Shown in pieces: positions 3,398 through 50,683 of a stretch of DNA of 64,000 nucleotides. The notes below the pieces were generated by a model. That model did not search any database. It saw only the letters and a list, made by a program, of their open reading frames with translations, and was not told the DNA's origin. Both the position numbers and the translations under genes were made by a program. Where the stretch lies: contig CAXXQS010000002.1 of assembly GCA_963674735.2 (NCBI GenBank), forward strand, positions 1,376,001 to 1,440,000. The letters are read 5' to 3'. Every line of letters begins with the position of its first letter. The stretch's first letter is position 1. The DNA comes from Myxococcota bacterium. Lineage in GTDB: Bacteria > Myxococcota_A > SURF-8.

Positions 3398-5101
3398 ATG
3401 GGCAACCGGCTTGGACAGTTGCTGGTTCGGGAAAATGTCATTACGCTGGCGCAACTGAAGAAGGCGCAGGATCTGCAGTCGAAAGAAGGTGGCCGTTTAG
3501 GGTATAACCTGACTCGTCTCGGTTACCTGGCCGAGAGTGATCTCACCGATTTCCTCAGTAAGCAGTACGGCGTTCCCTCCATCAATCTGGGTGATTTCGA
3601 TATCGATCCCCAGGTCATCCGCCTCATCCCGCGCGACGTGGCCGAAAAGCACCAGGTCATCGCGGTCAGCCGGGCGGGTTCCTCCCTGATCGTCGCCATG
3701 GCGGATCCGTCCAATATTTTCGCCATCGACGACATCAAGTTTCTTACCGGGTACAACGTCGAAGTGGTGGTGTCGTCCGAGACGGCGATCAAAGAAGCCA
3801 TCGAGATGTATTACACCATGGAGGAGCATGAGGAATACGAAAACCTCATGGACGACTTCGAGGATGACGATATTGAGGTCGGCTTCGATGAAGAGGAAGA
3901 CGCCAACGTTGTTGTTTTGGAAAGCCAGGCCGAAGAAGCGCCGGTTATCAAGCTCGTCAATCTAATGCTCATCGACGCGATCAAAAAGCACGCGTCCGAT
4001 ATCCACGTCGAAATCTACGAAAAGTTTTTCCGCGTGCGCTATCGCATCGATGGTGTCTTGTATGAAGTAATGAAACCGCCCATGAAGCTTAAAAACGCCA
4101 TTGTGTCGCGTTTGAAGATCATGAGCGAACTCGACATTGCCGAGCGCCGTCTGCCGCAGGATGGCCGCATGAAACTCAAGTTGGGCAAGGGCCGCGAGAT
4201 GGACTTCCGCGTGTCGGTTCTGCCGACGCTGTTCGGTGAAAAAGTCGTTCTCCGCCTGCTCGATAAAGACAATCTGCAGCTTGACATGACCAAACTGGGT
4301 TTCGATCCCGAGCCGCTGGCCGACTTCCGCGATTCGATTCACCGACCGTGGGGCATGATTCTGGTTACCGGCCCGACGGGTTCCGGTAAAACCACCACGT
4401 TGTATTCGGCCATGACCGAGCTCAACACTTCCGAGGTGAATATCTGTACCGCCGAGGACCCGGTCGAATTCCAGCTCAAGGGCATCAACCAGGTGCATAT
4501 GCACGAAGATATCGGGCTCAACTTCGCTTCGAGTCTGCGTTCGTTCTTGCGGCAGGATCCCGACATCATCATGGTCGGTGAGATCCGCGACTTCGAAACG
4601 GCGGAAATCGCCATCAAAGCCGCGTTGACCGGCCATGTGGTGCTTTCGACCTTGCATACCAACGACGCGCCGTCCACCATTTCGCGTTTGCTCAACATGG
4701 GTGTCGAGCCCTTCCTGGTGGTCGCGTCCGTTGTTTGCGTTATGGCCCAGCGTCTGTGCCGCAAAGTTTGTCCCGATTGTCGTGAGCCGATCGAGATTTC
4801 ACCCGCGACGCTCATCGATGCCGGGATGGATCCGGAACGCGCCGAAGCCTGCGAACCGGTCAAAGGCCGTGGTTGCAAGACCTGCTCGAACACCGGTTTC
4901 AAGGGTCGTATCGCGGTCTACGAGGTCATGCCCTTCAAGGATGAGTTGAAAGACTTCGTGCTCAACGGCGCTTCCGCCGTCGAACTCAAACGTGAATCGA
5001 TGCGCCTGGGTATGCAAACCCTGCGTCAGTCGGCGTTGTATAAACTCGAGAACCAGGTAACGTCGTTTGAGGAAGTGTTGCGTAATACGTCGCCCGATTA
5101 A
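3398..5101 (+). CDS. pilB: Type IV pilus assembly ATPase PilB with N-terminal MshEN-type domain
   Basis: Tandem RLGxxL motifs at the N-terminus, ASDIHVE, Walker A GPTGSGKT, AEDPVE, LRQDPDIIMVGEIRD, TGHVVLSTLHTND, Zn motifs CPDC and CKTC. Confidence 0.97.
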   Translation: MGNRLGQLLVRENVITLAQLKKAQDLQSKEGGRLGYNLTRLGYLAESDLTDFLSKQYGVPSINLGDFDIDPQVIRLIPRDVAEKHQVIAVSRAGSSLIVAMADPSNIFAIDDIKFLTGYNVEVVVSSETAIKEAIEMYYTMEEHEEYENLMDDFEDDDIEVGFDEEEDANVVVLESQAEEAPVIKLVNLMLIDAIKKHASDIHVEIYEKFFRVRYRIDGVLYEVMKPPMKLKNAIVSRLKIMSELDIAERRLPQDGRMKLKLGKGREMDFRVSVLPTLFGEKVVLRLLDKDNLQLDMTKLGFDPEPLADFRDSIHRPWGMILVTGPTGSGKTTTLYSAMTELNTSEVNICTAEDPVEFQLKGINQVHMHEDIGLNFASSLRSFLRQDPDIIMVGEIRDFETAEIAIKAALTGHVVLSTLHTNDAPSTISRLLNMGVEPFLVVASVVCVMAQRLCRKVCPDCREPIEISPATLIDAGMDPERAEACEPVKGRGCKTCSNTGFKGRIAVYEVMPFKDELKDFVLNGASAVELKRESMRLGMQTLRQSALYKLENQVTSFEEVLRNTSPD

Positions 5102-5151
5102 GATATCGCCGGACGGCTCTTTCGCGCCCTTCCTGAAGCATTGAGGGGAGT

Positions 5152-6240
5152 ATGGTCAGTTTACATCAATTGCTGAAAACCATGATCGAGCGGGGTGCGA
5201 GCGATTTGCACATTACGACCGGCTCGCCTCCTCAACTGCGTATCGATGGCCGATTGGCCCCGGTGAAAACCGCGCCGTTGACGCCTGCGGAAACCAAGCA
5301 GCTTTGCTACTCGATCCTGACCGAGGCGCAGAAGGCCAAGTTCGAAGGAAATAACGAACTGGACCTTTCGTTCGGGGTGAAGGGGCTTTCCCGTTTCCGC
5401 GCAAATGTCTTCATGCAGCGCGGAGCGGTGGCCGGGACGTTCCGTTCGATCCCGTTCAAGATCATGTCGATCCAGGAGTTAGGCTTGCCTCCGGTCGTTG
5501 CCGAACTGGCGCGCAAGAAGCAGGGGCTGGTTTTGGTGACAGGCCCAACCGGCTCGGGTAAGACCACCACCTTGGCGTCTCTCATCGATATGATCAACAC
5601 GGAACGCAACGCGCATATCATCACGGTCGAAGACCCGATCGAATATCTGCACCCGCACAAAAACTGCTTGGTCAACCAGCGGGAAGTGGGCTCGGATACG
5701 ACGAATTTCGCCGATGCGTTGCGTTACATCCTGCGGCAGGATCCCGATGTGGTTCTCATCGGTGAAATTCGCGATCTGGAGACCGTGGAAGCCACCTTGG
5801 GGATCGCCGAAACGGGCCACTTGGTTTTCGCCACCCTGCACACCAATTCGGCCGTGCAAACCATTACCCGTATCGTGGACATGTTTCCCCCGCATCAGCA
5901 GGATCAGGTGCGCGCCCAGCTCAGCTTCGTACTGACGGGTGTGATGACGCAGTCGCTCATTCCACGTTCGTCGGGTGTTGGTCGTGTTTTGGCTCTGGAA
6001 GTGCTGGTGCCCAATCCCGCTATTCGCAGCTTGATCCGTGAGGACAAACTTCATCAGGTATATGGCCAGATGCAGGTGGGACAGGAACGTTTTTCCATGC
6101 AGACTATGAATCAGGCTCTGTATAAACTATACAAGCAAAGGGCGATTACGCTCGACGATGCCATGGCGTATTCGCGGGATGTGGACGAACTGAAAAATCT
6201 GATCGCGGGTAGAGCCGAAGGCATACAGGCGCGGCGCTGA
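5152..6240 (+). CDS. pilT: Type IV pilus retraction ATPase PilT
   Basis: GASDLHI, GPTGSGKTTT, EDPIE, LRQDPDV, AETGHLVFATLHT, AIRSLIRE (AIRNLIRE motif), MQTMNQ. Confidence 0.97.
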   Translation: MVSLHQLLKTMIERGASDLHITTGSPPQLRIDGRLAPVKTAPLTPAETKQLCYSILTEAQKAKFEGNNELDLSFGVKGLSRFRANVFMQRGAVAGTFRSIPFKIMSIQELGLPPVVAELARKKQGLVLVTGPTGSGKTTTLASLIDMINTERNAHIITVEDPIEYLHPHKNCLVNQREVGSDTTNFADALRYILRQDPDVVLIGEIRDLETVEATLGIAETGHLVFATLHTNSAVQTITRIVDMFPPHQQDQVRAQLSFVLTGVMTQSLIPRSSGVGRVLALEVLVPNPAIRSLIREDKLHQVYGQMQVGQERFSMQTMNQALYKLYKQRAITLDDAMAYSRDVDELKNLIAGRAEGIQARR

Positions 6241-6273
6241 CTCTGACCCCGGGCCGCTTAAAAGGAGGACTCG

Positions 6274-7494
6274 ATGCCCTACTTCAAATGGGAAGGCAAA
6301 ACCCGCAACGGCGAGGTTAAAAAAGGGAGCATGCAGGCCGCAGATGAGCAGGCCGTTATTCTGCGCTTGAAACAGCAGCAGATCATCCCTTCGACGGTTA
6401 AGAAGTCCATGGGTAACATCGAAATCCGGATTCCCGGGATGGAGCCCAAGCTACAGCCGAAATCGCTGGTTATCTTCACCCGCCAGTTCGCCACGATGAT
6501 CGATGCCGGTCTTCCGTTGGTGCAGGGGCTCGATATTCTGGCCGCCCAGAACGACGATCCGGTGATGCAGAAAGTTCTCTATCAGGTGAAATCCGATGTC
6601 GAGTCGGGTTCGACCTTCGCTTCCGCTCTGGAAAAGCATAAGAAGATCTTCGACGATCTCTATGTCTCACTGGTGTCTGCCGGTGAGCTGGGTGGTATTC
6701 TCGATACGATTCTCGATCGTCTGGCGGCCTATATCGAGAAATCCAGCGCGTTGAAGAAACGTGTGAAATCCGCTTTGACCTACCCGATCGTCATTCTAGT
6801 CGTCACCTTCATCGTCGTCGGCGTCCTGATGGTCTACGTTATCCCTGCCTTCGCTCAAATGTTCAAGAGTTTAGGCGGTGGCGATTTGCCGGGTCCGACC
6901 CAGTTGGTGATGGCCGCATCCGATTTCGTGGTTGATGGACTCCACTTCATTATTGGCACTATCGTTGGCGTTATCGTTTTGTGGCGCACTTTGATGAAGA
7001 CGAAAAAGACACGCTACGTGCTCGATACGATTTTTCTGAAGATGCCGGTTATCGGCGACCTGATTCGTAAAACGGCCGTGGCGCGTTTCACCCGAACCCT
7101 GAGCACCATGATCTCTTCGGGTATTCCCATTCTACAAGCTCTTGAAGTTGTTGAGAAAACCGCCGGAAACATGGTGATCGAGGCGGCGATCATTCAGACC
7201 AAGGCCAAGATTACCGAAGGTAAATCGATGGCGGAACCACTCATGGCGACCGGTGTGTTTCCTCCCATGGTGGTGCAGATGATCGCGGTTGGTGAATCCA
7301 CCGGTGCTTTGGATGCCATGTTGGGGAAAATCGCTGATTTCTACGAGGAAGAAGTCGATACCGCGGTCGATGGCTTGACGGCGATGATCGAGCCGATCAT
7401 GATGGTTTTTCTGGGTGGTATCATCGGCTTCGTTCTGGTCGCCATGTATCTGCCGATCTTTACGATGGCCGGCGGTCAGGGCGGCGGTCACTAA
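6274..7494 (+). CDS. pilC: Type IV pilus inner-membrane platform protein PilC (GspF family)
   Basis: FTRQFATMIDAGLPL, AGELGGILD, ALTYP, GESTGALDAML, AMYLPIF; AAAGGAGG RBS. Confidence 0.96.
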   Translation: MPYFKWEGKTRNGEVKKGSMQAADEQAVILRLKQQQIIPSTVKKSMGNIEIRIPGMEPKLQPKSLVIFTRQFATMIDAGLPLVQGLDILAAQNDDPVMQKVLYQVKSDVESGSTFASALEKHKKIFDDLYVSLVSAGELGGILDTILDRLAAYIEKSSALKKRVKSALTYPIVILVVTFIVVGVLMVYVIPAFAQMFKSLGGGDLPGPTQLVMAASDFVVDGLHFIIGTIVGVIVLWRTLMKTKKTRYVLDTIFLKMPVIGDLIRKTAVARFTRTLSTMISSGIPILQALEVVEKTAGNMVIEAAIIQTKAKITEGKSMAEPLMATGVFPPMVVQMIAVGESTGALDAMLGKIADFYEEEVDTAVDGLTAMIEPIMMVFLGGIIGFVLVAMYLPIFTMAGGQGGGH

Positions 7495-7515
7495 CGAGAA
7501 GGCCGTCGACGATTT

Positions 7516-7531
7516 TGGCACGGGATACGCA
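7516..7531 (+). promoter_or_regulatory. Putative sigma54 (-24/-12) promoter upstream of the pilin gene
   Basis: TGGCACG-GGAT-ACGCA with GG (7517-18)-N10-GC (7529-30) spacing; imperfect at the TT of the -12 element. Confidence 0.55.
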
Positions 7532-7594: not shown

Positions 7595-8041
7595 ATGTTT
7601 AAGCGCCACAAAGGGTTTACGCTGATCGAGATCATGATCGTGGCGGCGATCGTGGCTATTTTGGCGTCTGTCGCTTATCCCGTCTACACCAATCGCGTAG
7701 CCAAGAGCCGTCAAGTCGTGGCCAAGGCGGCTCTGGAGGCGGCGCGGCTTGCGATGGAGAATTACCGAGCGAAAACGGGATATTACATGCCGATCAACAA
7801 CGAGCTGACTCAGCTTCCCGGATATGACCCGGGGATCTGGAAAACCTCCGATCAGCGTGCCATTTACGAGTTGACCATCACGCAACCCACCACCAATCGC
7901 AACAGCAATTACTTTCTGGTCACGGCTGTTTGCGACCCGGATGGCACCCCGCCGTGCAATATCGACAGCGATCCGGCCGTGGATGAATGGACCATCGATT
8001 CAACGGGAACGATGCGAAATATTCAGAATGATGTCGATTAA
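7595..8041 (+). CDS. pilA: Type IVa pilin (PilA-like; PilE-like not excluded)
   Basis: Class III signal KG|FTLIEIMIV with E5. The C-terminal NIDSDPAVDEWTI...NDV resembles deltaproteobacterial pilins. Follows pilC. Confidence 0.7.
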   Translation: MFKRHKGFTLIEIMIVAAIVAILASVAYPVYTNRVAKSRQVVAKAALEAARLAMENYRAKTGYYMPINNELTQLPGYDPGIWKTSDQRAIYELTITQPTTNRNSNYFLVTAVCDPDGTPPCNIDSDPAVDEWTIDSTGTMRNIQNDVD

Positions 8042-8323: not shown

Positions 8324-8851
8324 ATGGCGCACGAAACGAAACAAGCCAGGGGATTTACGTTGCTTGAGGTCATGATTGTCGCGGCGATCGTGGCTGTTAC
8401 GGCCTCGGTCTCGCTGGCATTCTTTGGGTCGCGGCCTGCACGGGTCTACACCGACACGGCCGCCAAGCAGTTTTACACGATGCTCCAAGATGCTCGTGGC
8501 GAAGCCATTCGTAGCTCGCGCAACGTGATCGTTCAGGCCAACGGTCTTCGCTACATTTCCGTTTGGCGGGATGAGAGCGGAGACGGGACGGTCAACGAGT
8601 CTCGGGAGTTCATGCGCGGCGAACTCAAGTTGACCGGCGAAGTGCTGATGTCGGAAGAGTTCACGTCGGTTTTCTACAATCATCGTGGTTATCTGACCGA
8701 GTTGAACGGGAGTCCGGCCAACCGCACCGTGATCTTCTGTGTGGCCGATCCCAACGACGGCAACAGGTGCTTGGCTGAGGGACGGACGGCAACCATCGAA
8801 ATCAGTGCATTGGGCTTGCCCAGTTTGCAATATGGCGTGTTTTCGGAGTGA
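8324..8851 (+). CDS. fimU: Minor pilin FimU/FimT (GspH-like)
   Basis: RG|FTLLEVMIV, LQDARGEAIRSSRNV, VFYNHRG, IEISALGLP; first gene of the minor pilin cluster. Confidence 0.85.
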   Translation: MAHETKQARGFTLLEVMIVAAIVAVTASVSLAFFGSRPARVYTDTAAKQFYTMLQDARGEAIRSSRNVIVQANGLRYISVWRDESGDGTVNESREFMRGELKLTGEVLMSEEFTSVFYNHRGYLTELNGSPANRTVIFCVADPNDGNRCLAEGRTATIEISALGLPSLQYGVFSE

Positions 8852-8859
8852 GGCGCTTA

Positions 8860-9387
8860 ATGAAAAGACTGACAGCCAATAGTTCCGAGGGAGGCTTCAC
8901 CATATTCGAGGTTTTGGTGAGTGTCGTTTTGCTGGGTATCGGCGTTGTGGCGTTGGCTTCCCTGCAGATCATCGGCATGCGCGGCAATGTCGCCGCTGAA
9001 GACCGCACCAAGGCGATGTCGGTGGCGACGGCCAAGCTGAGTGAAATCTCGAGTTATACGTTTTTTCAAAATATGAACACCGGCGAAGTAGTTGCCGATG
9101 CGCGGCTGACGGCTGCGGGGCGCATTTGCCAGGAAGTCAATCAGAGTTGCCTGACGCGCGAGGAAATCCGAACCCGTGCCGGCCTGGCTGAAGGTGCGGC
9201 GTTGGATGACGAGCAGTTTCGCTACACGCTCTGCTGGACCATCACCGACCAAGGTGATCTTACCCAGCCGGGATCGTTTAAGCAGATTACCATCGATGTT
9301 TCCTGGTCAGACCGGGCGTCGAAGGGCGGTGATGATGTCGTGTCGATCAGTTTGACCGGCTTGCCGTTAACCGCGAAATACATGTAG
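8860..9387 (+). CDS. pilV: Minor pilin PilV
   Basis: GG|FTIFEVLVSVVLLGIGVVALASLQ and KQITIDVSW. ATG 8860 has a GAGG RBS; GTG 8848 is an alternative start. Confidence 0.88.
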   Translation: MKRLTANSSEGGFTIFEVLVSVVLLGIGVVALASLQIIGMRGNVAAEDRTKAMSVATAKLSEISSYTFFQNMNTGEVVADARLTAAGRICQEVNQSCLTREEIRTRAGLAEGAALDDEQFRYTLCWTITDQGDLTQPGSFKQITIDVSWSDRASKGGDDVVSISLTGLPLTAKYM

Positions 9388-10481: not shown

Positions 10482-10496
10482 CGGGAGGATGGACGT

Positions 10497-11021: not shown

Positions 11022-11031
11022 GGAGATTACG

Positions 11032-15171: not shown

Positions 15172-15186
15172 GAACGGAGCGTTAAA

Positions 15187-15705: not shown

Positions 15706-15832
15706 AAAGGTGGGAATTATGCGGATAGCCCGCACCATTAATAGTGACTGTCGTTATGCAGTAAGACGAACACCGTGCAGTGCGAAGAATGAAGCCGAGG
15801 GCCGCATGGCTGCAAGGCAGGGAGAAGGACCC

Positions 15833-19018: not shown

Positions 19019-19122
19019 AGACAAGGCTGAACGAAACACCAAGCCGGGTTCTCTGCGACCCGGTGGGATACGATCGACAGACCCCGCGTCAAACCCGTTG
19101 TGCGGAACGGCTGGAGGCCACC

Positions 19123-46100: not shown

Positions 46101-49100
46101 CTACACCGAACCGCCGACCCCGGCGAGCGGGTGGAACACCAGCGCTCCGACCTTCGATTCCAACAAGCAGGTTCCGGAAACCGACCATGTATCGCCTTTG
46201 AGCGGTGTGTGGTGGCAGCCGGAAAATTACACATACAATGACAGCGATGACGACTGGGGCCGTCCGAATCTCAAGGTTGAAGAAGTTGACGATCCGAACA
46301 TGCACGATGTCGTATCGTACCTGTTCTCGATCTCAACCCAGCCGGACGGCGTTTCAGGCACGCTTGGTGAGCAGTTGTTCGAGTCGGGTTGGTTTATCCC
46401 CGAAACCGGCGACTATGATCTGAGTGGCAATATCCAGTGGCAGGTGGAAGGCCCGGCGGAAAATTACCTGCGCCTCAGCACGGCTTACTACTATTGGATC
46501 AGCCGCACGCGTGACAACCATGGCTGGGAAAACGATTGCAACGATCCGTTCAATCCGGCCAATGGTTGCGAGCCGTGGCTTTTGAAGGTGGATGCGACCA
46601 AGCCTGTGATTACCAGTTTGACGGCATCGCCGCAAAACGATCCGGAGCAGTGGAGCAACGACGATACGCCGCGTCTGACGTGGAGTGCGGCGACGGTTTC
46701 ACCGGCCCAGATCGACGGTTTCTCATGGAGTGTGCCGTTCTCCAATACGTCTTACACCGATCATGCGGCGCAGACACCGGACGTCGACCGATTGAAGGAC
46801 GAGGGTTCTGCAACAACGGCGATTACGCTCAACCCGTTGAGCGACGGTATCTCCGTTTTCCACATTCGGACCGTAAGCTTGGCCGGTCGCTGGGGTGACG
46901 ACGAAACGAAAGTTTTACGTATCGATACGTCGCCACCGATCAAGCCGACCACTTATTCGAGTACCCACCCGAACGGGCATGCGGAAGATCCGGAAACCTG
47001 GTACACCTCCTATGATGTCCAGTTGGGTTGGAGCGGCTATGATGAGACGGTGCAGCTTTGGGATGGTCGCCCCGGTATTACGCACTACAGCTACCTCCTG
47101 AGCACCAACGACAGCGCCGATGCCGGACAGGTTACGACCAATACGCCGCCTGCGCCGACGAGTAAGTCCTACACCTTGCCGAATGATGGTGTGTATTACT
47201 TCTACGTTCGTGGGCGTAATGAAGCGACGATCTGGGGTCCGCAGGACATCTTCACGATCCGTGTTGATAAATCGGCCCCGCTCAAACCTGAGATCACCAA
47301 TGCTTCGCACGACGAAGACAAGTGGTACTCGTCGCGTCATCCGAGCTTTGGGTGGATTGCGTATGATTACGATCCGGACGATCCGAGCGTCGATCCCGAC
47401 AACCATCCGCCGATCAGCAATTATTGCTACATGATCGACGACCGGCTGCCGTCGGATACCGTATGGAATAACGAAACGTACTGCACCAACAACGGAACGG
47501 TTGCCAACGTAACGGTTCATACGGTGACAGGCGATGGCTTGGGTGACGGTACGTGGTACTTCCATGTCGTGGCCCAGAATGCGGCGGGTCTGTGGGGACC
47601 CTTCGAGCATCACAAGATTCAGATCGATGGGACCGTTCCTTCGCCTGCCGATGCCGGGTTTAGTTCTCCGACTCATCCGGATAGCGATAACGCAACCGAC
47701 CCGGCCCCCGATTTCTGGTACAACGAGACCGGCTTCGGGATTTACTGGGCGACCAAAGACACCGCCCCGATCGTTGAATACTCGGTCGGTGTTTCCAATA
47801 ACCCGAGCTATTCCCCTTCGACGACATCCGCTCAGGTTTACAACCCTGTCGCTCGTGCGGAATGTCCGGATTATAACGGACCGGACGGGACACCGGATGG
47901 CGTGGTCGACAGCTATGACGCCTGCATGATGTTCCCGAAGAATTCCGCCGACTGGCCCTACGATATCACGCAGGGTGGGGCGACGGCGGCCGAAGGGAAC
48001 TGGTATTTCCGCGTGAAAGTACGTAACGCTTCCATTGGTGGACAGCCGATGTGGAACACCGATCCTATCGGATTCGATTTCAAAGTCGATACAACTGCTC
48101 CGCCTTTGGAAAACGTTGTCATCGATTCCACTTCACATGTCAGTGGGCAGCCGAACGGTTCGACCAATGCCCAGTTCTCGTGGACGGCGACGGAAGAAAG
48201 CGGCCAGTCCGACATCCGGGATTACTGCATCAAGTTGCATAAAGCCGCGGATGTGGGGAACTACAACGACTGTGACTGCACTGGTCAAGAAACGAACGGA
48301 ACCCTGGCCAACGGCAGCATCGTAACCACGGACGTCAGTAAGGTATACAATCTGGAAGTGCTTTACCCGGCTGATCCCGATGGTCATTATTACTTCACGG
48401 TGCGGGCTCGTAATACGTCGCAGACGACTGAGGGGTCGCATACTCTGTGGAGTGAAGCCCAGCGCTTCCATCTGTGGGTCTTCTCGGCCGGTGCGTCGAC
48501 CCCGGTTATTTACGCCGAGAATCATTCTCCCTCGACTACGTGGTTCTGGGACGAGGATAACAATAAGAACCAGCTGCGCTTCGAGATCGAATCGACGGCA
48601 CCTGCGGGCATTGGTATTCGTGCCTATCGTTACCTGGTCGCTCTCGATAAGAACTTCGAAGATGGGGATGAAGGCGGCTTCAATCCCAACAACTACAGCT
48701 GGATCGAATGGCCGGCCACTCAAGCCGAGCAAGATGCGGCCTGTGACGCCGGTGGTCTGACGGGACATCCTGAGTTCGCCGAAGTATCCTACGGCGTCAA
48801 ACAGGAAGGTGAGTACTGGCTGCACGCCGCTGCCAAGGCTTGTGGTGATGCTCAGGATTGGAACTACAATCACCGTAAAGCCCGTGTGGATAGTTCGGCT
48901 CCTGAGGTTCAGACGCTTTCGTTGAGTGACGACTTTACCGCCGTTGTCGGGGGTAATGGTTGGTGTCAACGCGCTGATGTCGAAGGCGAGACGAACCCCT
49001 GCCGTAATCCGAAATTCGTCTTCCGTTCCAAGGATACCGGAACGGTTTGGAACGGTAGTGCATGGGAGCTTATCGAAGCGGGTCGTATTCTCGGATACAG

Positions 49101-50625
49101 CTACAAGTTCAACAGCGTTGCTCCACCGGCCGATATCGATTGCGATGATTGTGCCGGCACATCGGATCCGACCGCTTGTGAAGCGGCGTGTCCGGATACG
49201 ACCATCCAATCGGTTTCCGGAACCGGTGCCTGTCCGACCGGAACGGATGGGACTTGCAAGTACGTACAGTATCAGGGTATCTCGAACGGTATCTACTGGT
49301 TCCATGTGCGTGCGCGTAGTAACACCAAGGATATTTCGGGTGTCCCGAATCGCGATTGGGGTGACACGGAACACATCCAGATCAAAGTGGATATTCCGCC
49401 GCCGGGCTCCATGCGAATTGATGGTGGGTTTGGTGTCGGGGGTATGGATCCGACTTCCGGAGGTTACTTCGGAGATGAGGTCTTCCACTACGTGCAAATC
49501 AGTCCTTACTATATCATGCAGCACGAAGTTACGGTTGCTCAGTACAAGGACTGTCTCGAAAACTTCTCAGAGGTTCGCGACACTCTGAATAATACGATCA
49601 GTTGTTTGCCGGGTGAAGATACCGAGCAGTGTGCGTCGGATTACACGGGCTACGTCTACTCGTGGGAAACGCTTGAATGTTACGTGCACGACAGCGGTGA
49701 TCCCAACCTGGGTCGGGCTTGTCCGGGCGGCAGCTATTGTTCGCCGACAACCAGCACATGTGTGACCGGTTGCGATCCGTATTCCGACTCCGGATTCAGC
49801 AACCCGCAAAGCACGAGTTCGTCGACCGGGCGTAATTATTTCGACAGCCGGTCGGGTGCTTACGACGACTATCCGGTTATCTACGTGTCCTGGTACCAGG
49901 CGCAACAGTACTGTATTTCACAGGAAATGCGCCTGCCCACGGAACATGAGTGGGATCTTGCGGCGCGTGGTGACTTGAACCTGACCGCCGACGACTACAA
50001 CCGTTGGCCGTGGCGCCACTACTGCATCCTGGATCAGTACGATAACTGTATTGGTGATGTGGAGCCCGACAATGATACGTTCTGGTTCCCGAGCTCGTCG
50101 TGGCCGGATTGGCCGGAAGTAGATGGCAAGCCGTTGAACTATGCCGGACTGGGCTTGGGTGATACCACTCCATCCAACATCGGGAATGCCGATCCGGTTC
50201 TGTGCTTCTTCTCGGGTGATAATCATACCGCCTCGGAATTCCCGGAAATCGGTGTGAATATCACTACTTCCAACGGTGCGCAGCTGGCCTGGAGTGGCGG
50301 TGAGATTTGCGATATGGCCGGTAATGTGTCTGAGTGGGTGGTGGATTGGTACAGCCCCTACTTGGTGCAGAACAGTCCGATCGGCCGCACGCCTGACAAT
50401 CCGTGGGTTGATCCGGTGGTCGGTGATGTGACGGAATGTAAACTGCGTTGCACTGGTGACGGCAACTGCATCACGGCTTGTTCGGACAAGGTTGCTCGAG
50501 GTGGTAGCTTCGCTTCTTCCTGGCGTTACACGCGTGTCGGGTACCGTGACACTGCCGACCCGATGATCGGTCAAAGCCATATCGGTTTCCGTTGTGCGGC
50601 GCCGTCGGCGATGACAGCCGAATAA
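19123..50625 (+). CDS. Giant (~10,500 aa) secreted multidomain adhesin-like protein: Ig/FN3-like repeats, ConA-like and CBM-like domains, C-terminal FGE-sulfatase (CLec-fold) domain
   Basis: Uninterrupted 31.5-kb ORF. ATG 19123 with GGAGG RBS and signal peptide MKAPERALTRKSLLYALALIVGFMLLAPQPEAQA. Dozens of repeats ending VYxxFxDxxGN...DxxxP or WYFHVRAxD/NxAG. C-terminal HEVTVAQY, PVIYVSWYQAQQYC, RLPTEHEW, DMAGNVSEWV, RGGSF, IGFRC. Confidence 0.92.
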   Translation: MKAPERALTRKSLLYALALIVGFMLLAPQPEAQAYTLYSANNYWISAAPTLDYNNSNSTYLDYYDRNYNAYAGARIVAHTCHQNAKGRGFLRYYRRYGNNTGSWQYSDSYACPSNGSSPPGTTASNGGYIYEFSDYNNLGFGSSATSTQYAVKMRIYARNPNTGGYYDGPQTYYIRHRIDNGWPGTSNQINTFYSKCTGAAASTTNVDCSPNTCAGKNSWFVCNSTWNYYARDYGDYAFTSSTDFSRGHRVTSLKTGHDSSSYANSNPTTGWLAGLDITNQNLATGLRTIYMHGWGWDSFTAGGDADKQRRLGRHRYYYRYDNNMPTLAQKTAGGGPTAGRWYNTGGWDIKWELADTISKPRWGFVDGPTGDLTCTSSTSSGCGGNSGAFEMGRTLNEVRNGAYGGITLYYSGCDYSGRGFGTHSTYCLTDGTYNDPRKSATYYYDRNNPYVSVTCSTGTCPANGWVNSDFSVYFDGKDNSSSTNAGPWKLYYRTLSGEYSSFTVDTSHCTSTPVTDSTPSYNETVRYTWSVGSSFGATGKTTCARIYDGSYDDSNHQGARSAASTCKFYKYDGHNPTITMSNSGSCCVPSTSNCYLGDDGDNITLTLHDDEELKRVDCNWTTSSSSSYPSQGGGTRGANLTGQNATFNTQYDDATSTGEGTRYLWCKVWDTTGRSATVSGYFKLDRNPPTTSVTSNYPYYTNASQSNISWKNGTTPTFYGNASKGTNDSAIQKYQWELNETTSSELSYTGSSPMASWAISPSPGNLDRQGRNDFKFKTRNSVCTAHESHAWSGWSTIYIWRDTLGPDRPGRPTTPGGRYTSDNTPTFTFTPTQGDCVPSSATSTSCGSYTRNASTYSSLYSGIKDSNMYRYYLRETTGGSNLSNNYFTCTSTSSCSFTPSYTLQTERDYVLLLRVYDKAGKYGNADNTTDAVTGSSSTWVYFTYDHSAPNTLSAVPSAVADANVSTNRTYYSSGTSVNVTTKARDALGWAPLYVAISTTKYGTTDCNNAGLAGAWRSMGGSLKTTSELTYTYSVSDFSSSGTNYYVYFKDSGNNCVAYNTTSGPGYTFKIIKDTAPPANPQLRVYSSTSSNNCSNIGSGTARTTSRDVKLVACVTNASSEPNLKVFAEDNWIRNSGFDTSRPSDYNDNHGTTTESDHWYNPGNRGLRKQTSVWGTSTWANEYTASSTAAYEIGISQCLFGCGGAGTYCPSGDNLSCPVSGTPGSNQFQDKWTQAPSGWSWHTNYRYYCNAVGTSGNDYYTKVYGASGQGTAFFFDCPSIGSTGYRSNNETLTNIGSYLAFAFKEDQDLSSGKVTVDNFEFYRYPTSSTPNDSNTSLNDLNEWMGWKSWSGTSSGSFNWKLPEGDGPHKVYAWFKDQTGNITTSAATATIILDRRAPWGGLVVAAPTSTETIDGRRYTSAPRPQLRLRAYDDWTTGSGMRAALSLNNSTYGSYFGISHGDQTLDVSSTYWPGLSGAVNATTGNTVYARFKDGGDNTTSHTIASAIYLDRKKPELAASLATANQGYTNENVTVRITTLKDNWPYMDGSNKKLRVCIKHKNSTGDTATPTYDDPSATGNCWQNISVSGTSYYSGTADLAYTLTGNKNENKTVYVWAVDGSAKRYGIDPLNIAGPVTMTTFLDGTPPTCASIVAYGKDRNNADDSRFFNDGTVKVVVKATDVAGVSGVRLSNSTSFSGGWTSMASCTGGYCATVATFDINEAATTPKVYAQFQDTLGNYTTSGFCSDTITYDITGPQKAAVQIVGNVPGDINKTNTPNVKLKVGAYVGTATPGAVSGITEGWTNTTANPLYYRVCRNLTGNTNSDCWPNASGWLALPSSGDVPTGTTTFNLGECSVGLASCTKSVYLWLSDQGGNDSAPNQNGAYPVRTDTVTLDSNKPVCTASVTSADFSYTSDHFTDDPILNVSIDREGNTDISHYCLCTGDTNALPSSAGSTSDYCADNTSNGRCTGWTSIPVSNTTQWTLYSGAAASAPQGDKHMWIFCRDSSYNISCDPKTETCAAQDYAKIDTKAPAIPAQNIHVKDSSHPLQTNQKNAKITWGSSYDTYGECSGSGTCGGGTCISQFCSPAVASGLVGYQARYKLDTASTWKPTENVFNLTAYPYPQDMIWDPVYNFEPDGHWQIQVKAVDKLYQSSEVDHANPAGSTWQQVSVLVDTTGPQPYNPVDGAAITLYEPNSSCGTSFYTHASKKVTASNAIDIAINAKDALDPDGQGTNWREATATVMGFSVVAATADCPQNTAVDYRYIFEADECFQGVDGGGQQWSNGFPIVSGTPATTVEKKICGHFRDWINNYSPAVRNDADFVALVTYDREGPYASGLPSTDEDVHNTPKPNWTWTASTGDKARALASTGDSCPGAPYRLRYWMGPVGGETAGPYYSKSLTTNQMTSIDYNTGQELIPGVWNAVVEVYDAKCYKTDSTAGETEYDTSVSSDNKVSILSPADNSNKFTNKAAVDLSISTVDTDIEKYVTWNCNNGESTPLLGTWTPYSSDGSIGGWTLDVSGISTPKGTVKVCYRFLDAAGNITCDPVASPSCDPSHGLDFAPQMDTIIYDKWAPTNDGDAIAVASLSDGPDPFYTNQSSVAVTLSAKDGNSDEWTSLRYAIANAADGSSPANPASSVGSWQAFTSPLDIASHSLGVSGDACDANGQRDVYVWFADQGALIPGDGPTEYNRTPNGSPYKDSIFFDNCMPQPVDTSVPHIVKVGGIDPNATDDATPEWTWPAFADPGSASSTGAGLCTAALCNTASIKGTYQICWSNYESSCAWSTDAPYFRDTNSYTHTSALNPGVWYFHVRAYDRAGNVSDTLVGSATVVDVQKPSKPIVSAFDDDPLNQHLASARLVIDAADGNDGSAVDYAIKVANVSNGAGGTMWVGDSGVLETDPVWQSRNTWNGDGSGVIIKELEDSKLYIFTLIASFDQGGEYPSDDFASVRVNDRTPILPPTPTASADVGNNQVDLSVSYKDPTSTRFPAAVWDANAERYNALRQEMLTTSGDFGAGDDTFPLRNGIAYIPHSVSGWGEDTFLSIEPYKMAYFTPNWEHRDGDGYNTAGHPSVLPGIGYGIEFDPVRNLIYSVSSSSPQLYAYTYNSLTSSWSGTTITGSIPTCIDLAYDGNFLYCMGNHNGTISRFKLSGAAGSQTMAAQGTFSPGTALAYDGLAVANGLLYVGGRGDTDRTVTVYRTGDWSDDSTDLPTSAASFSVSSDANANIGTLLSDGRFLYTHAVELSGGVPTDSHNRVYGHALLNQMAFFQANPNEDSLDAARAEYAPLGGVIDRFDDSDFTDLWNLSSGNFSQGSGFVAATGTTNMLLAKTTPPTRYFAIEADVMDTASIADGEVGLVYSAANTNNRFQCGFNVNQDVSPITYSARIYRRSTANGTVEVGSRDDLTFAKGAWYHLKVVVTDRDHTCYINGVKVASLQGDSTLPGGAPLSVGVFADQDGARFNNFRLTPLQGDVSGSNWTYASTDAQDITPPTDITSATSTHSPAINVWSNVDEISVNWDEPDSQGTAYSFTSSALDGAHNFSNGFANGTFDGGDGAKAYSWYRNTALTSTHDTSCTNAGCSRRVVGTETFSGISMAGKTISGYGRYIRSRADGTAYIGLIQRVPVMTKDSSDFAFEFDYYCESGTINLQSGKNGWRMRFIREDGNATPYDSTAVAYLSNGTTAIKDLNQFECVANETGHVVAKVSTPSSMANHYYRLQVYDWALTSGNYPTDPYVFQGIVLDNFTLREVDSATIETLMAEYLVTATWSDGGSSQVYQYTRPNNTAGRDLVIPPNGDQIASGEWVVTVAGKDAAGNWNENDYELNKFLVDNTKPATPEISCNVDKADWSNATSATCSWDKTTGPSPGTYYTCYSNSSNPADCNTWSSQSDTSASVAVALTEGIEGKSYLHVYAMDTGSPDPGVDPPGIDTYEFWIDQTKPTAPTVSCSCPDSVSIGDGADPDAVDEWYCMNDDKNISCAWNDLPQPPTSPRKFGSCLYQVRTEDLGAGQEMEDFDCNAAVKCTLNYVLSTPAKALGDTLVNGSGTWCFYAGNSDTGGFSDVSSYKFHIDITPPERPSNEWAPWVINGEGAKVDYTAEERPTWVWQPAIDQHSGLAGGTGRYDIMWSLDGCGNYSAQNSADAATETYTHTSDLTVNVKYWGWVRAFDLVDNYADSECGEIFVVGMEDPAPPAVSALIDPVLQSEAGKIKLVIDNTGNVQPNIMFAVIENKATGGTYLRGDGTLGAAYVDPKTGDPALINEIWRTYDASGSAVHWNGTNGLIIDGIDFGSGEVPLYDGTEFEFQVTSYYPDTMHGPGTASQVVTFDRTQPKPVVATIGVRPDTDPDSGQTLNRMVVGYEHGGVFIEAEDAFNVATSTATLGTSSVDNGDDYTASGGSFMELSAAGSALEFKFYAEKTARYYLHTLGYAIGGGDDEFYVHLDGSGSALGDSAIDPPDGKPGYGWSSGYSLGTQNLEQGWHTVTLKKKHPAKIDAVWISQTRLTDPADRRLLSFNHGEFQKVTRSSTLASGYVPIEGVEDGFGRTDLGVGSDYVSFIGSGETWGITNGEAHDDKNQNLATAILTSDSYDHFTAEVDTRILSTSNGGAGLVVRQAGGSYYIFQILFQSGGKVILNRDNQYPAAPFKEKTVALSAGDWYRLKVVARGAELKFYVNDAMQFNVFDDTVSSVADFSGRVGLYSHPRTGTGNHYAYFDNFRVLPFSTPGGVVDNDAVDLGAPTTPTALAGNPTTPPVGATNETELTVRWNAANDTTNTDTYYYVTEMVDLEGNEENLLGNGGFELGDAGWTNSSPAQNPILESGWASGETYEGDWAASFAASGTISYVVSSVSIPNGGQQFFASGMLSAISSGLEVQVWARTTGTTGWNEAQHKIFGEGLTDFTGKWTEVGRGFRIANTSGSARNYDLMFRLSNSGSVGLADDLKIVKGQQGTIYTGVGGYDVWWLPEGLTEVVGGKRQPVSGVTAEEIGVTALASTYTIPQNAQNEYQDGNWYAFTQTFDRAGATPNRSAEWLAFGPFEVDTRDPVVTLGDPRIMVDNGSGTLVDSDFTHTPNVFLHFRVEDLSAYMVKDDSQITEGEADPASTQWIVPSLADCTKQTSGTTDIWTCDIPHTLSGTDQDDYTVYMRFMDDVGNVTDNYSDTITHDSEGPDPVSLTIGEDVDGTFSELEFTNRLENIGGVWKALADLDLQATDNWPPITMDLSNTNGSWPNSWQSLSSPYLEWELDVSSTTTPVEETVSVYARFRDGSGIEQNQSSASDSIKFDTRGPQVCNLEFMSGTNDNGTLRSNTKSVAVRLVVEDWWSPWKYALSRTTSTGTITEIFTSPLDTSWDLVPSTDNTLYDEQKSVYLKCWDGGDNHDATNSVDQKSIVYDNRPPKARYVQAWPQVEYPTGNLYTASRDIDIRLVVEDSNITGNAWLEHWFPVQVRLSNDGVFDGQDDLGGTFVEHAEELTWYSLGNPYSYDGSSQLIPLTVPTTWRLTNGDDTKTVYMNLKDGGGNEWSVVGTLPTDTIKLDTAGPTGEMDVEDLDGYINTENGQVRIILSNVVEQWHQVQMQVRHEHRTSGGAIDYSGDWTWEKVCSSAQKTSDGWCPVNYDFNTWQLGKDVDGTWTVLQGDWTVYVRLRDGGKNINVIGSETVYHSTEAPECSLVINGGAEWTNDPNVDLLVTNVCDSGTDDCESVGKTPVSYTAKNVPGDYSGPYWDFTNPSTTKVDWPILTDRPDQTDGEKIVYAYCKNAANNISSAALSSIKLDTYAPVPPTTSGTPQSPTPDRAYCNNDPAPTWTWNAWSDNSGSTIGSSGIDYYVVYWGTTAFSSCAGCSDTVDADTRASSYQYTNAVDDMTDTVGGTTWYFWVKAFDKAGNESEVTSGSGSIVIDTIPPSLASAWMTIFDDNRAWYNKYYPLTVRLDGVVGAYQMLVDSEHDPTQPLNLYPDDVSGSAPWVGYNQIISFIRIEPDGEDEHRWISMVFRDRAGNVTNTYIADDIGIDVSKPVWSGAPTCGTSPTNDNTPTCDWTGLVEDTVSGFHDSAPFVLRWEKGSKSITVTTTDFTYSLSDIPAGTGLGDGEWTMWVTAYDKANNNEASSQVTFTVDTEPPAGELTITDAVSYDGHETIYTRFADVDLSIPLTSEGSGFDPADYQMKLWNAGESAPAYAAYEDTKSDWPLFDSATAGEKTIQVCFSDLANNESECPPVLANTPDHIATIYYDPTPPPAVTALAADDTFASPDGPSTADRTPSWSWSWSNDDATGASGGRVINRYRLEWKKVDRNDDNVILEGPFPTASEDPMFTDGTSFQHVDELSKGKWIMTAWVYDNAGNESAAETATVFIEAISIPARPIVTRGALYPLNSGMAAAYLTLDVDSENPINTLYSVYEETTGKYLKADGTLSGDEVGPESGDPSVPSIWRTINEWNPAGQPPFIIRGLENGKVYRFKAKAFYTGLNSSDFGEAMPFVPGDHIATKAANLAATTVNHANGYPDHVELSWNFDWNAFSQAATVYDAPLDAGYEQFVVNQDLATGGVTVVSYADNNQVTDGVTSVILNRGDSIVLPDASVTPAYTLEPKTKIVGSGPFTAKGNGPDVGGMLVPGAYADTAFASIAARNSDVVITVLALEEGTDIGVYENNGVLKDSANLGRDDFYRFDNLGLGKDSTVSVLGNKPFLAYYTATGSAADDFYPMPPLATELYGVPSSSFRLACPTAGTTGTIYKSDGSSTPFSCGPTSSVSDTGASLGAGPAYRVVSDNYPIAGLGYADSSGGEGESLIPKRFMGNAFTVAEGTIYVALALQEQGATVTVYDQDGNDRGLTPTATESSCSGCPGYALLGAVNAGDLIVTSSAAMAYYDSASGGYETGIAAWPMWTNTIQRADGSGDGMLTSMGGWFDDFSTASMSNYSSAFSSGFAIGGGQLVDNISGNKLGLVYDANSGSDYIVEADVFNGDGPDSGLVGLLFRYASASDYYLFGISSESGVQGARLLLRQNGVASSAEASLVDLPLQLESNRWYHLKVVAKGKRFRCYVGDYLVIDHFDKNALASGKTGVFSGENSAQVVFDNFSVAPISDAAAYAADDAHDVMPPNAVDEGNLGITSGQTQSDPPTTISWYNDPVVGLSWNTPSDVATDYTFVQDVADPDGNFNNGFENGGFELAISADNWGNEDSDCSDGKCHLRTLDLDGNPASFAGSSNYAWRVKTDGNVPIPVMVQQAPDLSATNTSFLFEFAYRCVEATGSNGWQFYFANNAQSVFLRPSGTAVLASGERLAKDMSNFTCDADEEGVFRAVLSRNASVDDFQFFLVEHPAAGAQEILLDNLRLRKVEQTSVVSGLDGYAFVCGTDTVNNWTKNKEETVTSANCDFSASQGGNNFIHLRTVDNRGNWDEEEDVVTLGPFYIDIEAPDAPGEPDTERDPMNEPRPTWSWTRPADNPALDASGLDAAHTYTVYWSLDPNADEATLRSADQYDEITDMPDTRPGYADHSIYTIPETKPGLTHTSGESATWHFWVYAIDKAGNVSDRSVGSVEIDLMGCEMPDTDAVVLEDGAEYTPNQAAKVVVASSGTSCYWIGLSNTPVMPDYEDFSASDGSGRWFDLRTLTPADTVLNWDLDTGLTNTDDGMRTVYVWVRDTAYNVEGPKSDSTYLDRIKPSTPGKPIATSEPVNPSDPWPEINPNSDTTPLWRWVASTDNLSGIRDVNGYELQWDTDVNFSSPVSQLLDPEELRDIQGVSNSIYNHPSEEAKQLSYDPYSLVNKTWYMRVRSFDNVDHASDWSEPIGSITAQVTIDITWPEAAFTIDDGAEITSNRRVTLDVTNATDLWQPITFAVANTDNPLSFDYTYPANAEITNWDLTSSLPDYGTPGFDPPDGEYEVYMRFRDGGLTPTPQDVLESTKQVIILDTHGPDCNGDDDSGLIAARYHESGYGLEMFWDEPSDPYSAVDHVYLEVSVNGGTYTTPSTVPSGNLAADSTGYYDYGLAQGSSYQYRYKCYDDLGNSSDFVYSEVLVPSDTTAPATPVNFTWRSEIDTPSSNPDVQGSVKLSLIWENVTDVDLSHYNVYGSMVPTDLTNRLVAAGCGLSMGSGAVTSPCSLAVDGNGTTYFELDQPGYDMAEWLLDSSEHLGKVRVRFYDDDNRIFKREQIRMYTGVSDFIRLSPDGLLEDIVDGFAWRADRSQMSFPVPYDAGSALRVAALFDGITEAQISSTDDKVRIVEIEAFGSRLNISDIQPASDGGDPDYPDTKFEWTVTGMEEWHFAVDSVDTANNASEHSNPIVSIQAIDSSPPYAPVISAAKFGEPSETVAEGTWYGFDDVTFGWTSSDKEGTPIVNYRWYFDAPGAECTSGNYDTNGNCHGLTISYDQMDIPDCVSSVQPWRFYVQAQNDVGLWSAWSYFEISIETREPLVLNLTAPDFDDLPVVTPPYSNDTWENNDAPFFVWATDPDTVSGIQGYVWEFIPEPSVGYDPTTWTPADPNNIESYSANPLREDFTAVADGRHWFHIQAVSIAGVVGPASHYLVKIDTAPKYLDILLVDQQTTESVWYSYDSVDEIRWHSQALSGIHSFTWQFDQTPGSAFSSFGAEAESVSVLGSEDVEEVESAYDLPWDVSDNPSTFPDSGVWTFHLQATANSGATSNVLHRDIQVDLGPTTPVFNGTLSSESPDDTADPSDELWINESQPVTVWNVSSLSGIEKVLVLVTQDAGEVPTESTPGVVVINDADDGVADGIVANTYQTPVIPSGIWYVIVRAQNRAVPAVWSQAAAREYNVDTGPTLPEVTADPHADESVWYAEALDETTLSFWAAAFSGVSKFQYTWGRDETLPTTPTWTDIAVDGGDIDATWTAGPDSPEPLDLPRYKQTLDRSDLTPGIWYLHVRAVNGISVPGQVKRFSIHMNEEARIEDVSVGLDPVKTDASETQVTTVEIYDYNTAANIKKVHLAIDALNYDSNPTGDAVKRGYFTWSPTEGFTKLAGNGGDHVLLSGSVVDPKPTDADYNTATTLVVQFKWLLLSTYGDTQANQVKVIVEDYTEPPTPASGWNTSAPTFDSNKQVPETDHVSPLSGVWWQPENYTYNDSDDDWGRPNLKVEEVDDPNMHDVVSYLFSISTQPDGVSGTLGEQLFESGWFIPETGDYDLSGNIQWQVEGPAENYLRLSTAYYYWISRTRDNHGWENDCNDPFNPANGCEPWLLKVDATKPVITSLTASPQNDPEQWSNDDTPRLTWSAATVSPAQIDGFSWSVPFSNTSYTDHAAQTPDVDRLKDEGSATTAITLNPLSDGISVFHIRTVSLAGRWGDDETKVLRIDTSPPIKPTTYSSTHPNGHAEDPETWYTSYDVQLGWSGYDETVQLWDGRPGITHYSYLLSTNDSADAGQVTTNTPPAPTSKSYTLPNDGVYYFYVRGRNEATIWGPQDIFTIRVDKSAPLKPEITNASHDEDKWYSSRHPSFGWIAYDYDPDDPSVDPDNHPPISNYCYMIDDRLPSDTVWNNETYCTNNGTVANVTVHTVTGDGLGDGTWYFHVVAQNAAGLWGPFEHHKIQIDGTVPSPADAGFSSPTHPDSDNATDPAPDFWYNETGFGIYWATKDTAPIVEYSVGVSNNPSYSPSTTSAQVYNPVARAECPDYNGPDGTPDGVVDSYDACMMFPKNSADWPYDITQGGATAAEGNWYFRVKVRNASIGGQPMWNTDPIGFDFKVDTTAPPLENVVIDSTSHVSGQPNGSTNAQFSWTATEESGQSDIRDYCIKLHKAADVGNYNDCDCTGQETNGTLANGSIVTTDVSKVYNLEVLYPADPDGHYYFTVRARNTSQTTEGSHTLWSEAQRFHLWVFSAGASTPVIYAENHSPSTTWFWDEDNNKNQLRFEIESTAPAGIGIRAYRYLVALDKNFEDGDEGGFNPNNYSWIEWPATQAEQDAACDAGGLTGHPEFAEVSYGVKQEGEYWLHAAAKACGDAQDWNYNHRKARVDSSAPEVQTLSLSDDFTAVVGGNGWCQRADVEGETNPCRNPKFVFRSKDTGTVWNGSAWELIEAGRILGYSYKFNSVAPPADIDCDDCAGTSDPTACEAACPDTTIQSVSGTGACPTGTDGTCKYVQYQGISNGIYWFHVRARSNTKDISGVPNRDWGDTEHIQIKVDIPPPGSMRIDGGFGVGGMDPTSGGYFGDEVFHYVQISPYYIMQHEVTVAQYKDCLENFSEVRDTLNNTISCLPGEDTEQCASDYTGYVYSWETLECYVHDSGDPNLGRACPGGSYCSPTTSTCVTGCDPYSDSGFSNPQSTSSSTGRNYFDSRSGAYDDYPVIYVSWYQAQQYCISQEMRLPTEHEWDLAARGDLNLTADDYNRWPWRHYCILDQYDNCIGDVEPDNDTFWFPSSSWPDWPEVDGKPLNYAGLGLGDTTPSNIGNADPVLCFFSGDNHTASEFPEIGVNITTSNGAQLAWSGGEICDMAGNVSEWVVDWYSPYLVQNSPIGRTPDNPWVDPVVGDVTECKLRCTGDGNCITACSDKVARGGSFASSWRYTRVGYRDTADPMIGQSHIGFRCAAPSAMTAE

Positions 50626-50651
50626 TTCGGGTTGCTTATCCGTGTTCATCT

Positions 50652-50683
50652 AGAGGGTGCCTTTCGGGGCACCCTCTTTTTTT
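50652..50683 (+). terminator. Rho-independent terminator closing the pilus/giant-protein unit
   Basis: AGAGGGTGCC-T-TTCG-G-GGCACCCTCT stem with a UUCG loop, followed by a T run, 26 nt after the stop codon. Confidence 0.9.

Follow-up and report, generated by a model that had tools for sequence, protein, structure and literature searches.

By what route does a diderm cell release a protein of 1.1 MDa in which no known signal for outer-membrane export is present, and can a pilus/secretin machine act as exporter or carrier of such a giant? Both questions are raised by a locus in a 64,000-nt stretch of a Myxococcota genome (assembly GCA_963674735.2, contig CAXXQS010000002.1, positions 1,376,001 to 1,440,000 of the forward strand; hereafter the window, to whose first letter the coordinates refer). 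Here, a type IVa pilus (T4aP) operon runs into a gene for a secreted protein of 10,500 amino acids (aa). In the usual picture of type IVa pili, PilY1 is the large tip protein and its gene closes the operon; the known T4aP minor-pilin operons end at pilY1, pilY2 or pilE. In the genome under study, the operon, which up to a PilY2-like gene is textbook, is followed by a gene for a Cys-rich lipoprotein and by the giant gene. We regard the locus as a lineage-specific extension of the T4aP priming/tip operon and, judging from gene order and sequence, lean somewhat towards a functional coupling, of whatever kind, of the giant protein to the pilus tip module.

The genome under study (G000) measures 5.26 Mb. 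The comparison set consisted of ten species-level genomes from one order and four families; all genomes of this order are uncultured metagenome-assembled genomes. For profile searches, 391 other genomes of the phylum served as outgroup. Linkage of the giant gene was assessable in G000, G001, G003, G004, G006, G007 and G008, all of which except G007 hold a complete locus, and the assemblies of G002, G005 and G009 are fragmented.

On a single contig, pilY1, the small PilY2-like gene, the lipoprotein gene and the giant gene follow one another in G000, G001, G003, G004, G006 and G008. In G007 the order is pilY1, small gene, giant gene, the last being cut off by the contig end at 5,641 aa; 2,587 aa of its C-terminal part were located at the end of another contig. 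Upstream of fimU this genome has unrelated genes and no pilB, pilT or pilC; the giant gene has been kept with the minor-pilin/pilY1 module. Altogether, the giant gene lies directly 3' of that module in seven of seven assessable genomes from four families. The contigs of G002, G005 and G009 break off within the lipoprotein gene, after pilY1 and the small gene, which is consistent with linkage. Each of the ten genomes has one copy of pilY1, always the copy at this locus. Recurrence of the pilY1-giant synteny in related genomes, which the earlier note had named as a check of its reading, was therefore found throughout the assessable set, in place of the unlinked homologues that would have refuted it.

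The giant gene itself (19123..50625, + strand) was delimited by its open reading frame, its start and signal peptide, and collinear orthologs. The frame opens at 18910. The plausible start is the ATG at 19123, with GGAGG upstream of it and, after it, a Sec-type signal peptide of 34 aa (19123..19224, +), recognised by hydrophobicity, with cleavage predicted between MKAPERALTRKSLLYALALIVGFMLLAPQPEAQA and YT. The product has a mass of 1.139 MDa and an isoelectric point of 4.35. Its signal peptide is the only hydrophobic segment, as in three of the five other complete orthologs; the giants of G001 and G008 have one extra marginal hydrophobic window each. Scans against Pfam and NCBIfam matched no RTX, autotransporter, two-partner secretion (TPS), type IX secretion system (T9SS) C-terminal domain, PEP-CTERM or MYXO-CTERM model, nor any enzyme family or DEAD or SecA domain, and more than 90% of the protein is without a Pfam match. 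The earlier description of a Sec-exported protein of about 1.1 MDa, devoid of transmembrane anchor, autotransporter barrel, RTX repeats and PEP-CTERM or MYXO-CTERM tail, has therefore held up. The complete giants of the relatives measure 10,448 (G001), 10,055 (G003), 9,626 (G004), 11,161 (G006) and 8,853 aa (G008). Since the 31.5-kb frame is collinear from end to end with orthologs in these five genomes, it is not a product of chance or misassembly. In public run X1, which may share the source sample, one 68.8-kb Logan contig spans positions 10001-30000 of the window with 0 differences; run X3 gave short identical pieces on the same region. The runs show no strain variation. Self-comparison of the giant returned only 12 weak internal similarities (23-39% identity), and a tandem-repeat adhesin was rejected on this ground.

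The layout of the locus points to a single transcription unit. The gaps after pilY1, the small gene and the lipoprotein gene are 15, 127 and 104 nt in G000, and range across related loci from 9 to 43 nt (pilY1 to small gene), from 74 to 162 nt and, before the giant gene, from 67 to 285 nt. The unit is closed by an intrinsic terminator at 50652-50677 (+; annotated as 50652..50684; 11-bp stem with 7 GC pairs, followed by seven T residues). After the stop codon of the giant gene, a GC-rich hairpin of 9-11 bp with a T-run is present in six of six complete loci, and the spacers from pilY1 to the giant gene in the same six loci hold no hairpin with a stem of at least 7 bp plus T-run. Terminator-like sites between 7400 and 20000 are weak only, and their number (18, versus 13.1 ± 4.5 in shuffles) is not above chance. 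These data agree with what had been claimed from the letters alone, namely co-oriented genes with gaps of about 130 bp or less and a first clear terminator at 50652. As far as can be read from such features, fimU through the giant gene probably share one transcript, with its 3' end at the terminator behind the giant gene. The spacer between lipoprotein and giant genes also contains a 6-bp palindromic GC-rich hairpin, CCGGGT...ACCCGG (19044-19063), with no T-run on the + strand and perhaps a role in RNA processing or regulation.

The first gene behind pilY1 (15187..15705, +) encodes a small secreted protein of 172 aa. By profile search it stands directly 3' of pilY1 in all ten genomes of the order, and outside the order its profile matched one of the 391 phylum genomes (E 1.9e-4). 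No sequence family in Pfam or NCBIfam matched the protein. Its AlphaFold2 (AF2) model has an OB-like core at a pLDDT (predicted local distance difference test) of about 85-90, and the best structural match among 48,161 PDB chains was PilY2 of Pseudomonas aeruginosa (PA4555; 3tdq_B, Z 8.0, root-mean-square deviation [rmsd] 3.0 Å, 76/77 aa), tied within 1 Z with other, unrelated OB folds. The PilY2 gene sits in the same place after pilY1. From model and position, the small gene product looks like PilY2; of its earlier description as a small secreted protein, secretion stands, and a PilY2-like OB-fold protein is its probable identity. On this reading the small gene would still be part of the canonical operon, which is extended only by the lipoprotein and the giant. 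The module of G009 (C45:2878-7305) has a single in-frame TAG within pilY1, and its PilY2-like gene is spread over two frames; either sequencing error or decay of the module is possible.

The lipoprotein gene (15833..19018, +; ATG at 15833), identified by translation and lipobox, encodes an acidic Cys-rich lipoprotein of 1,061 aa, presumably of outer-membrane type, whose signal peptide ends in LVIAC. An EGF-like motif and a conserved Cys domain of about 110 aa are followed by Asp-rich linkers and then by many Cys-rich repeats. The N-terminal part is conserved (24-45% identity, alignment A5), and the gene lies 3' of the small gene in nine of the ten genomes. No curated Pfam or NCBIfam family was found for the protein, the only matches being those of its Asp repeats to MSCRAMM models, far below the cut-offs. 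An NCBIfam scan of the Cys-rich repeat region (705 aa) at E <= 5 yielded 0 families, the model TIGR04201 of Myxococcus Cys-rich repeat proteins included, bearing in mind that the HMMER filters may drop weak repeat matches. When public runs were aligned, the Asp-rich (DGDT)n linker at 16574-16666 attracted foreign contigs and apparent variants, a low-complexity artefact.

In its genes and their order, the N-methylation motifs, the PilY1 propeller and, probably, the PilY2-like OB-fold protein, the locus corresponds to the T4aP tip operon as it occurs in P. aeruginosa (fimU-pilVWXY1Y2E) and in the clusters of Myxococcus xanthus. It differs from it by two added genes, those for the 1,061-aa Cys-rich lipoprotein and the 10,500-aa secreted protein. 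The surveyed myxobacterial pilus clusters have, in the available part of the survey, the order fimU-pilWVY1X, without giant or lipoprotein genes (PMC6060248). In the literature searched, no published account of a T4aP pilY1 operon that includes a giant gene was found.

The six complete giants are collinear from end to end at 26-41% identity, and conservation increases along the protein. Over the first 2,500 aa or so (19225..26600, +), a hypervariable region of Ig-like arrays defined by ortholog alignment and Ig motifs, mean identity of the G000 giant to the five orthologs is 0.15-0.24 with 15-33% gaps (17-27% identity in the N-terminal alignment A2). The value rises to about 0.3 in the middle part and to 0.37 for the last 250 aa; the C-terminal domain is the best-conserved part. 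Such a gradient would be expected of a protein with a conserved anchor at one end and a variable, exposed region at the other. Ig-boundary motifs of the form hDxxxPxx occur 23 times in the whole giant versus 2.6 ± 1.5 times in shuffles, and Big_13-type Ig domains were found with Pfam. The Atlas clusters nearest to the N-terminal region are Big_3_2/Big_13 (score 0.87-0.90), which is a lead only. Within the first ~15 residues of the mature protein (19225-19290), where conservation is otherwise very low, five of seven orthologs share an N/D-rich motif with Trp as its last residue (NNYW, NDNW, NDGW, NDGYW, NGW), which could be a docking or secretion signal. Such a motif is found in 1.4-4% of 20-aa windows elsewhere in the giants, and since it was picked post hoc, the contrast is overstated. 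The variable N-terminal third also stands out in base composition: between 18001 and 30000 the GC skew lies below zero (-0.009 to -0.086) and the AT skew mostly above it, while the other + strand genes have a positive GC skew.

Three lectin-type modules were located in the giant. Module 1 (residues 3286-3458; 28978..29496, +) is ConA/LamG-like by Pfam (3keto-disac_hyd, E 1e-5; Laminin_G_3, E 3e-5), as is module 2 (residues 4548-4704; 32764..33234, +; 3keto-disac_hyd, E 9e-10). Module 3 (residues 6898-7048; 39814..40266, +) is CBM66/LamG-like by phmmer against the PDB, Foldseek and Pfam; it matches the fructan-binding CBM66 of Bacillus subtilis levanase (4azz, E 4e-9, phmmer) and, in the AF2 model, 4b1m (TM 0.63, Foldseek). 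When residues 6500-7500 were compared with the PDB by Foldseek, this CBM66 module alone matched cleanly, the other rows having an rmsd above 15 Å and representing noise. Before it lies an IgGFc-binding-like beta domain (residues ~6515-6850; 38665..39672, +), delimited by positions 1-350 of profile A1, which was built from giant residues 6500-7500, and by AF2, in which the domain is all beta with a pLDDT of 60-86. These profile positions match hundreds of proteins, one of which carries PF17517 (E 3.7e-12) and two of which are secreted sulfatases. A diverged second copy is present in the N-terminal third, as self-BLAST pairs residues 2801-2930 with 6302-6437; high-scoring segment pairs with orthologs align G000 residues 6165-6852 with ortholog residues ~2548-3248. 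The domain also heads secreted sulfatases of about 1,200 aa (P0037, P0091) and represents an uncharacterised, widespread accessory module.

The C-terminal domain (residues 10097-10500; 49411..50622, +) has the fold of formylglycine-generating enzymes (FGEs; Pfam FGE-sulfatase, E 2e-31), and the last 400 aa share this fold with PorK/GldK and FGEs over its whole length. In a profile search of the PDB, lipoproteins of the PorK/GldK type (E 2e-29) came ahead of true FGEs (E 3e-22). Human FGE needs a catalytic Cys pair after RGGS. None of seven orthologs has a Cys between RGG(S) and GFRC, and PorK aligns likewise; an active FGE enzyme was rejected for this reason. By its sequence, then, the domain is to be read as a structural or binding fold and not as an active FGE, so that the earlier label of an FGE-terminated giant holds for the fold, in a non-catalytic, PorK/GldK-like form. 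Large FGE-ended frames occur unlinked to pil genes, for example at C2:1230231, C2:396643, C2:176342 and C1:661088, and relatives also hold FGE-ended proteins of 1,900-3,200 aa. The FGE fold seems to be a standard end-module of large exported proteins in this lineage.

Taken together with the linkage, these features lead to the following proposal. The giant would be a fibre without enzymatic activity in which Ig-like modules, IgGFc-binding-like modules and lectin modules of the ConA/CBM66 type are strung like beads, with the conserved PorK/GldK-like C-terminus as a presumed cell- or machine-proximal anchor and the hypervariable N-terminal quarter as the distal part that would meet the target. 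Following Sec export, it would act with the minor-pilin/PilY1 complex. By analogy with TcpF and CofJ, this complex would carry it through the PilQ secretin as cargo, after which the giant would be held on the cell surface or the pilus as a long, multivalent glycan-binding adhesin. A glycan-binding fibre is a reasonable interpretation, because lectin-type modules are present. Export or carriage of the giant by the pilus machine is suggested by the conserved linkage, which stops short of proof. In the most explicit version, the priming complex would load the Sec-exported giant in the periplasm and thread it domain by domain through PilQ, and the pilus would bear or deploy a lectin-studded line of several hundred nm, with a variable far end that would bind targets, for PilT to reel in; this version we put forward tentatively and consider unlikely in its full detail. 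If true, no other cargo of a type IV filament system would come near the giant in size, and it would define a new class of pilus-tethered mega-adhesin. Prey capture by the giant is speculation, and nothing in the analysis marked these organisms as predators.

The precedents for such a route come from type IVb pili. CofJ of enterotoxigenic Escherichia coli is an operon-encoded, pilus-dependent secreted protein of these pili. Both CofJ and TcpF of Vibrio cholerae are small soluble proteins of type IVb systems without PilY1, and the giant is about 30 times larger. In common with them, it is encoded in a pilus operon and has a Sec signal. TcpF is described, in the available part of the source, as encoded in the pilus operon and secreted through extension of the pilus, its N-terminus binding the tip minor pilin TcpB (PMC9565799).

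A number of points weigh against the proposed coupling. These precedents are small proteins of type IVb systems, whereas the giant belongs to a T4aP operon. We know of no pilus cargo near 1.1 MDa. The ten genomes are relatives from one order, so that counts among them are not independent trials and the conserved order could partly be inheritance. The spacer of 95-285 nt before the giant gene could hold a promoter of its own. Three secretin genes are present in the genome, one of them adjoined by pilM and away from this locus, and another exit route such as a type II secretion system (T2SS) is therefore possible. The G007 locus lacks the lipoprotein gene, and the lipoprotein is thus probably not essential for the giant. 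Several proteins of 1,541-3,757 aa that are encoded away from the pil genes in G000 also end in an FGE fold, so that the C-terminal domain does not qualify as a docking module specific to the pilus. The AF2 model of residues 6500-7500 (1,001 aa) is poor, with a mean pLDDT of 53.8. Finally, the N-terminal half of PilY1 is modestly less conserved than the C-terminal half, an observation that says little either way.

Several of these points fit a giant that is co-expressed with the pilus and mechanically independent of it, that is, a surface or matrix adhesin that leaves the cell by another exit, for example a T2SS secretin, and is perhaps held by the lipoprotein. The genome has three secretins, the pilM-linked one elsewhere; the spacers before the giant gene are long enough for an internal promoter; the giant's size is far beyond any known pilus cargo; and the lipoprotein gene stands just upstream in nine of the ten genomes. 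Placement in the same operon would then mean that adhesin and pili are made together, for instance for surface motility or aggregation. In the split locus of G007, however, the giant stays with fimU-pilY1 and not with pilBTC or any T2SS gene, and at this locus the lipoprotein is dispensable. Within the window, no T2SS genes were found with Pfam. We take independent export to be a serious, if on balance unlikely, explanation.

Alternatively, the arrangement might reflect descent only: a single insertion of the lipoprotein and giant genes behind pilY1, in the common ancestor of the order, would have persisted without separation and with no functional tie. That all ten genomes come from one order would agree with this, and so would the wide occurrence of the giant's domains in large surface proteins elsewhere. 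The distribution of the whole giant, like that of the small protein, counts for the coupling. Full-length collinear matches to profile A1 were obtained in nine of the ten genomes of the order, the tenth (G005, 79% complete) giving a weak match. In the other genomes of the phylum, 35 of 391 gave single-domain matches only, in frames of at most 2,645 aa. Among 1.84 billion representative proteins, 4,496 matched at E <= 0.001, of which only 3 kept collinearity along the full profile. Two are fragments of 7,853 and 3,707 aa, whose identity to any of the giants compared reaches no more than 40% and 35%, respectively, and the third is a piece with 84% identity to the G006 giant. A word-based search with residues 5000-9999 in a library of 5.8 billion clusters, covering proteins of 5,499-17,499 aa, gave 1,328 candidates, none of them at E <= 1e-10, and a search of genome contigs with A1 returned only the known relatives and two weak single-domain matches. 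As far as these searches reach, the whole giant is confined to this lineage, and its domains are common building blocks.

Descent without function is nevertheless difficult to reconcile with the neighbourhood of the block. Of the 2 upstream and 11 downstream neighbours in G000, none was found in the compared flanks of the block in G004, G001, G006 or G008, and 2 were in G003; the flanks have hence been reshuffled in all five genomes compared, and the block is intact at giant identities of 26-41%. It also survived the loss of pilBTC linkage in G007, its gaps are tight, and a strong terminator follows the giant gene in six of six loci. The differing flanks, the G007 split and the terminator pattern argue that the linkage is more than an inherited neighbourhood, and we rate descent only as distinctly improbable. 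Vertical inheritance of the block is itself apparent from the sequences. Identity of the giants to that of G000 is 0.35 (G004), 0.34 (G003), 0.33 (G001), 0.29 (G008) and 0.26 (G006), and that of PilY1 is 46% (G003), 45% (G004), 43% (G001), 37% (G008) and 32% (G006). Giant and PilY1 appear to be vertically co-inherited, as the identity ranks are nearly the same and only the two closest, near-tied genomes swap places.

A role of the giant as a periplasmic or outer-membrane-proximal structural part, its PorK/GldK-like end forming a ring-like scaffold, in place of an exported adhesin, can be given very little credence, for although PorK/GldK, ring lipoproteins of the T9SS, are the nearest match to its C-terminal domain and no outer-membrane export signal was recognised in the giant, a 1.1-MDa acidic lectin/Ig-like protein with a hypervariable quarter fits an exposed target binder, and the FGE fold is common, with 33 matches in the G000 genome.

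In several features the locus stands apart from other systems for giant proteins. Adhesins of the type I secretion system (T1SS)/RTX class, such as SiiE, LapA and MpIBP, resemble the giant in their megadalton scale, acidity, Ig-like bead strings and ligand-binding modules. They have no Sec signal and are characterised by near-identical tandem repeats, a C-terminal T1SS signal and neighbouring genes for ABC transporter, membrane fusion and outer-membrane proteins. In contrast, the giant has a Sec signal, no RTX model and no T1SS genes nearby, its neighbours being pil genes and an S41 protease gene. For comparison of size, SiiE is listed at 595 kDa in the accessible part of its source (PMC6272769). 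The giant also differs from type V secretion, two-partner secretion and T9SS cargo, as its C-terminus is an FGE fold, no barrel or TPS model in Pfam or NCBIfam was matched at E <= 0.01-0.5, and no T9SS C-terminal domain model was matched. From PorK/GldK it differs in that the shared fold is the end domain of a 10,500-aa protein and not a lipoprotein of about 490 aa.

A parallel in gene neighbourhood is offered by the giants of Omnitrophota. According to the part of the preprint available, a conserved type IV filament superfamily locus lies in front of their genes, and domains for adhesion and for binding of carbohydrates are inferred in the proteins, which reach up to 85,804 aa and have many transmembrane regions and SecA-DEAD domains (bioRxiv 10.1101/2023.11.21.568195). 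The giant described here has a signal peptide only and no such domains, and its gene stands directly behind pilY1 of a canonical T4aP operon. If the coupling is real, the cargo range of type IV filament machines would be widened more than 10-fold, and a link would be made to the unexplained giant genes beside T2SS-like loci in other uncultured phyla.

The pilus genes of the locus all lie on the + strand. The extension ATPase gene pilB (3398..5101; Pfam T2SSE, E 2.3e-141, plus MshEN) shows 76-88% identity across five related loci and is followed by the retraction ATPase gene pilT (5152..6240; 362 aa; T2SSE, E 1.9e-51) and the platform protein gene pilC (6274..7494; T2SSF in two stretches, E 1e-69). 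Next comes a type IV pilin, probably the major pilin (7595..8041; N_methyl motif and a ComP_DUS-like domain). The minor pilins are encoded by fimU (8324..8851; GspH-like, Pfam GspH plus N_methyl), pilV (8848..9387; N_methyl motif, operon position and orthologs in six related loci), pilW (9396..10481; N_methyl plus PilW) and pilX (10497..11021; PilX_N, E 9e-8). Their class III (N-methylation) signals were recognised with Pfam as N_methyl in the products of fimU, pilV and pilW and as PilX_N in that of pilX. pilY1 (10945..15171) has orthologs of 29-46% identity in six related loci and was assigned by PF05567, the PilY1 beta-propeller, at 32.7 bits versus a cut-off of 28.1, the match covering positions 1-155 of the 411 in the profile. 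Its first ATG is at 10945, but a start at the ATG at 11029 (MRKRFVILV..., a signal peptide) is more likely.

Downstream of the terminator, an open reading frame at 50657-52054 encodes a protease of the S41 family (Ctp-type, with PDZ). Its gene is not conserved beside the giant gene in the relatives. The GTG listed as its start falls inside the terminator hairpin, and translation must therefore start 3' of this codon; Pfam matches set in at residue 76.

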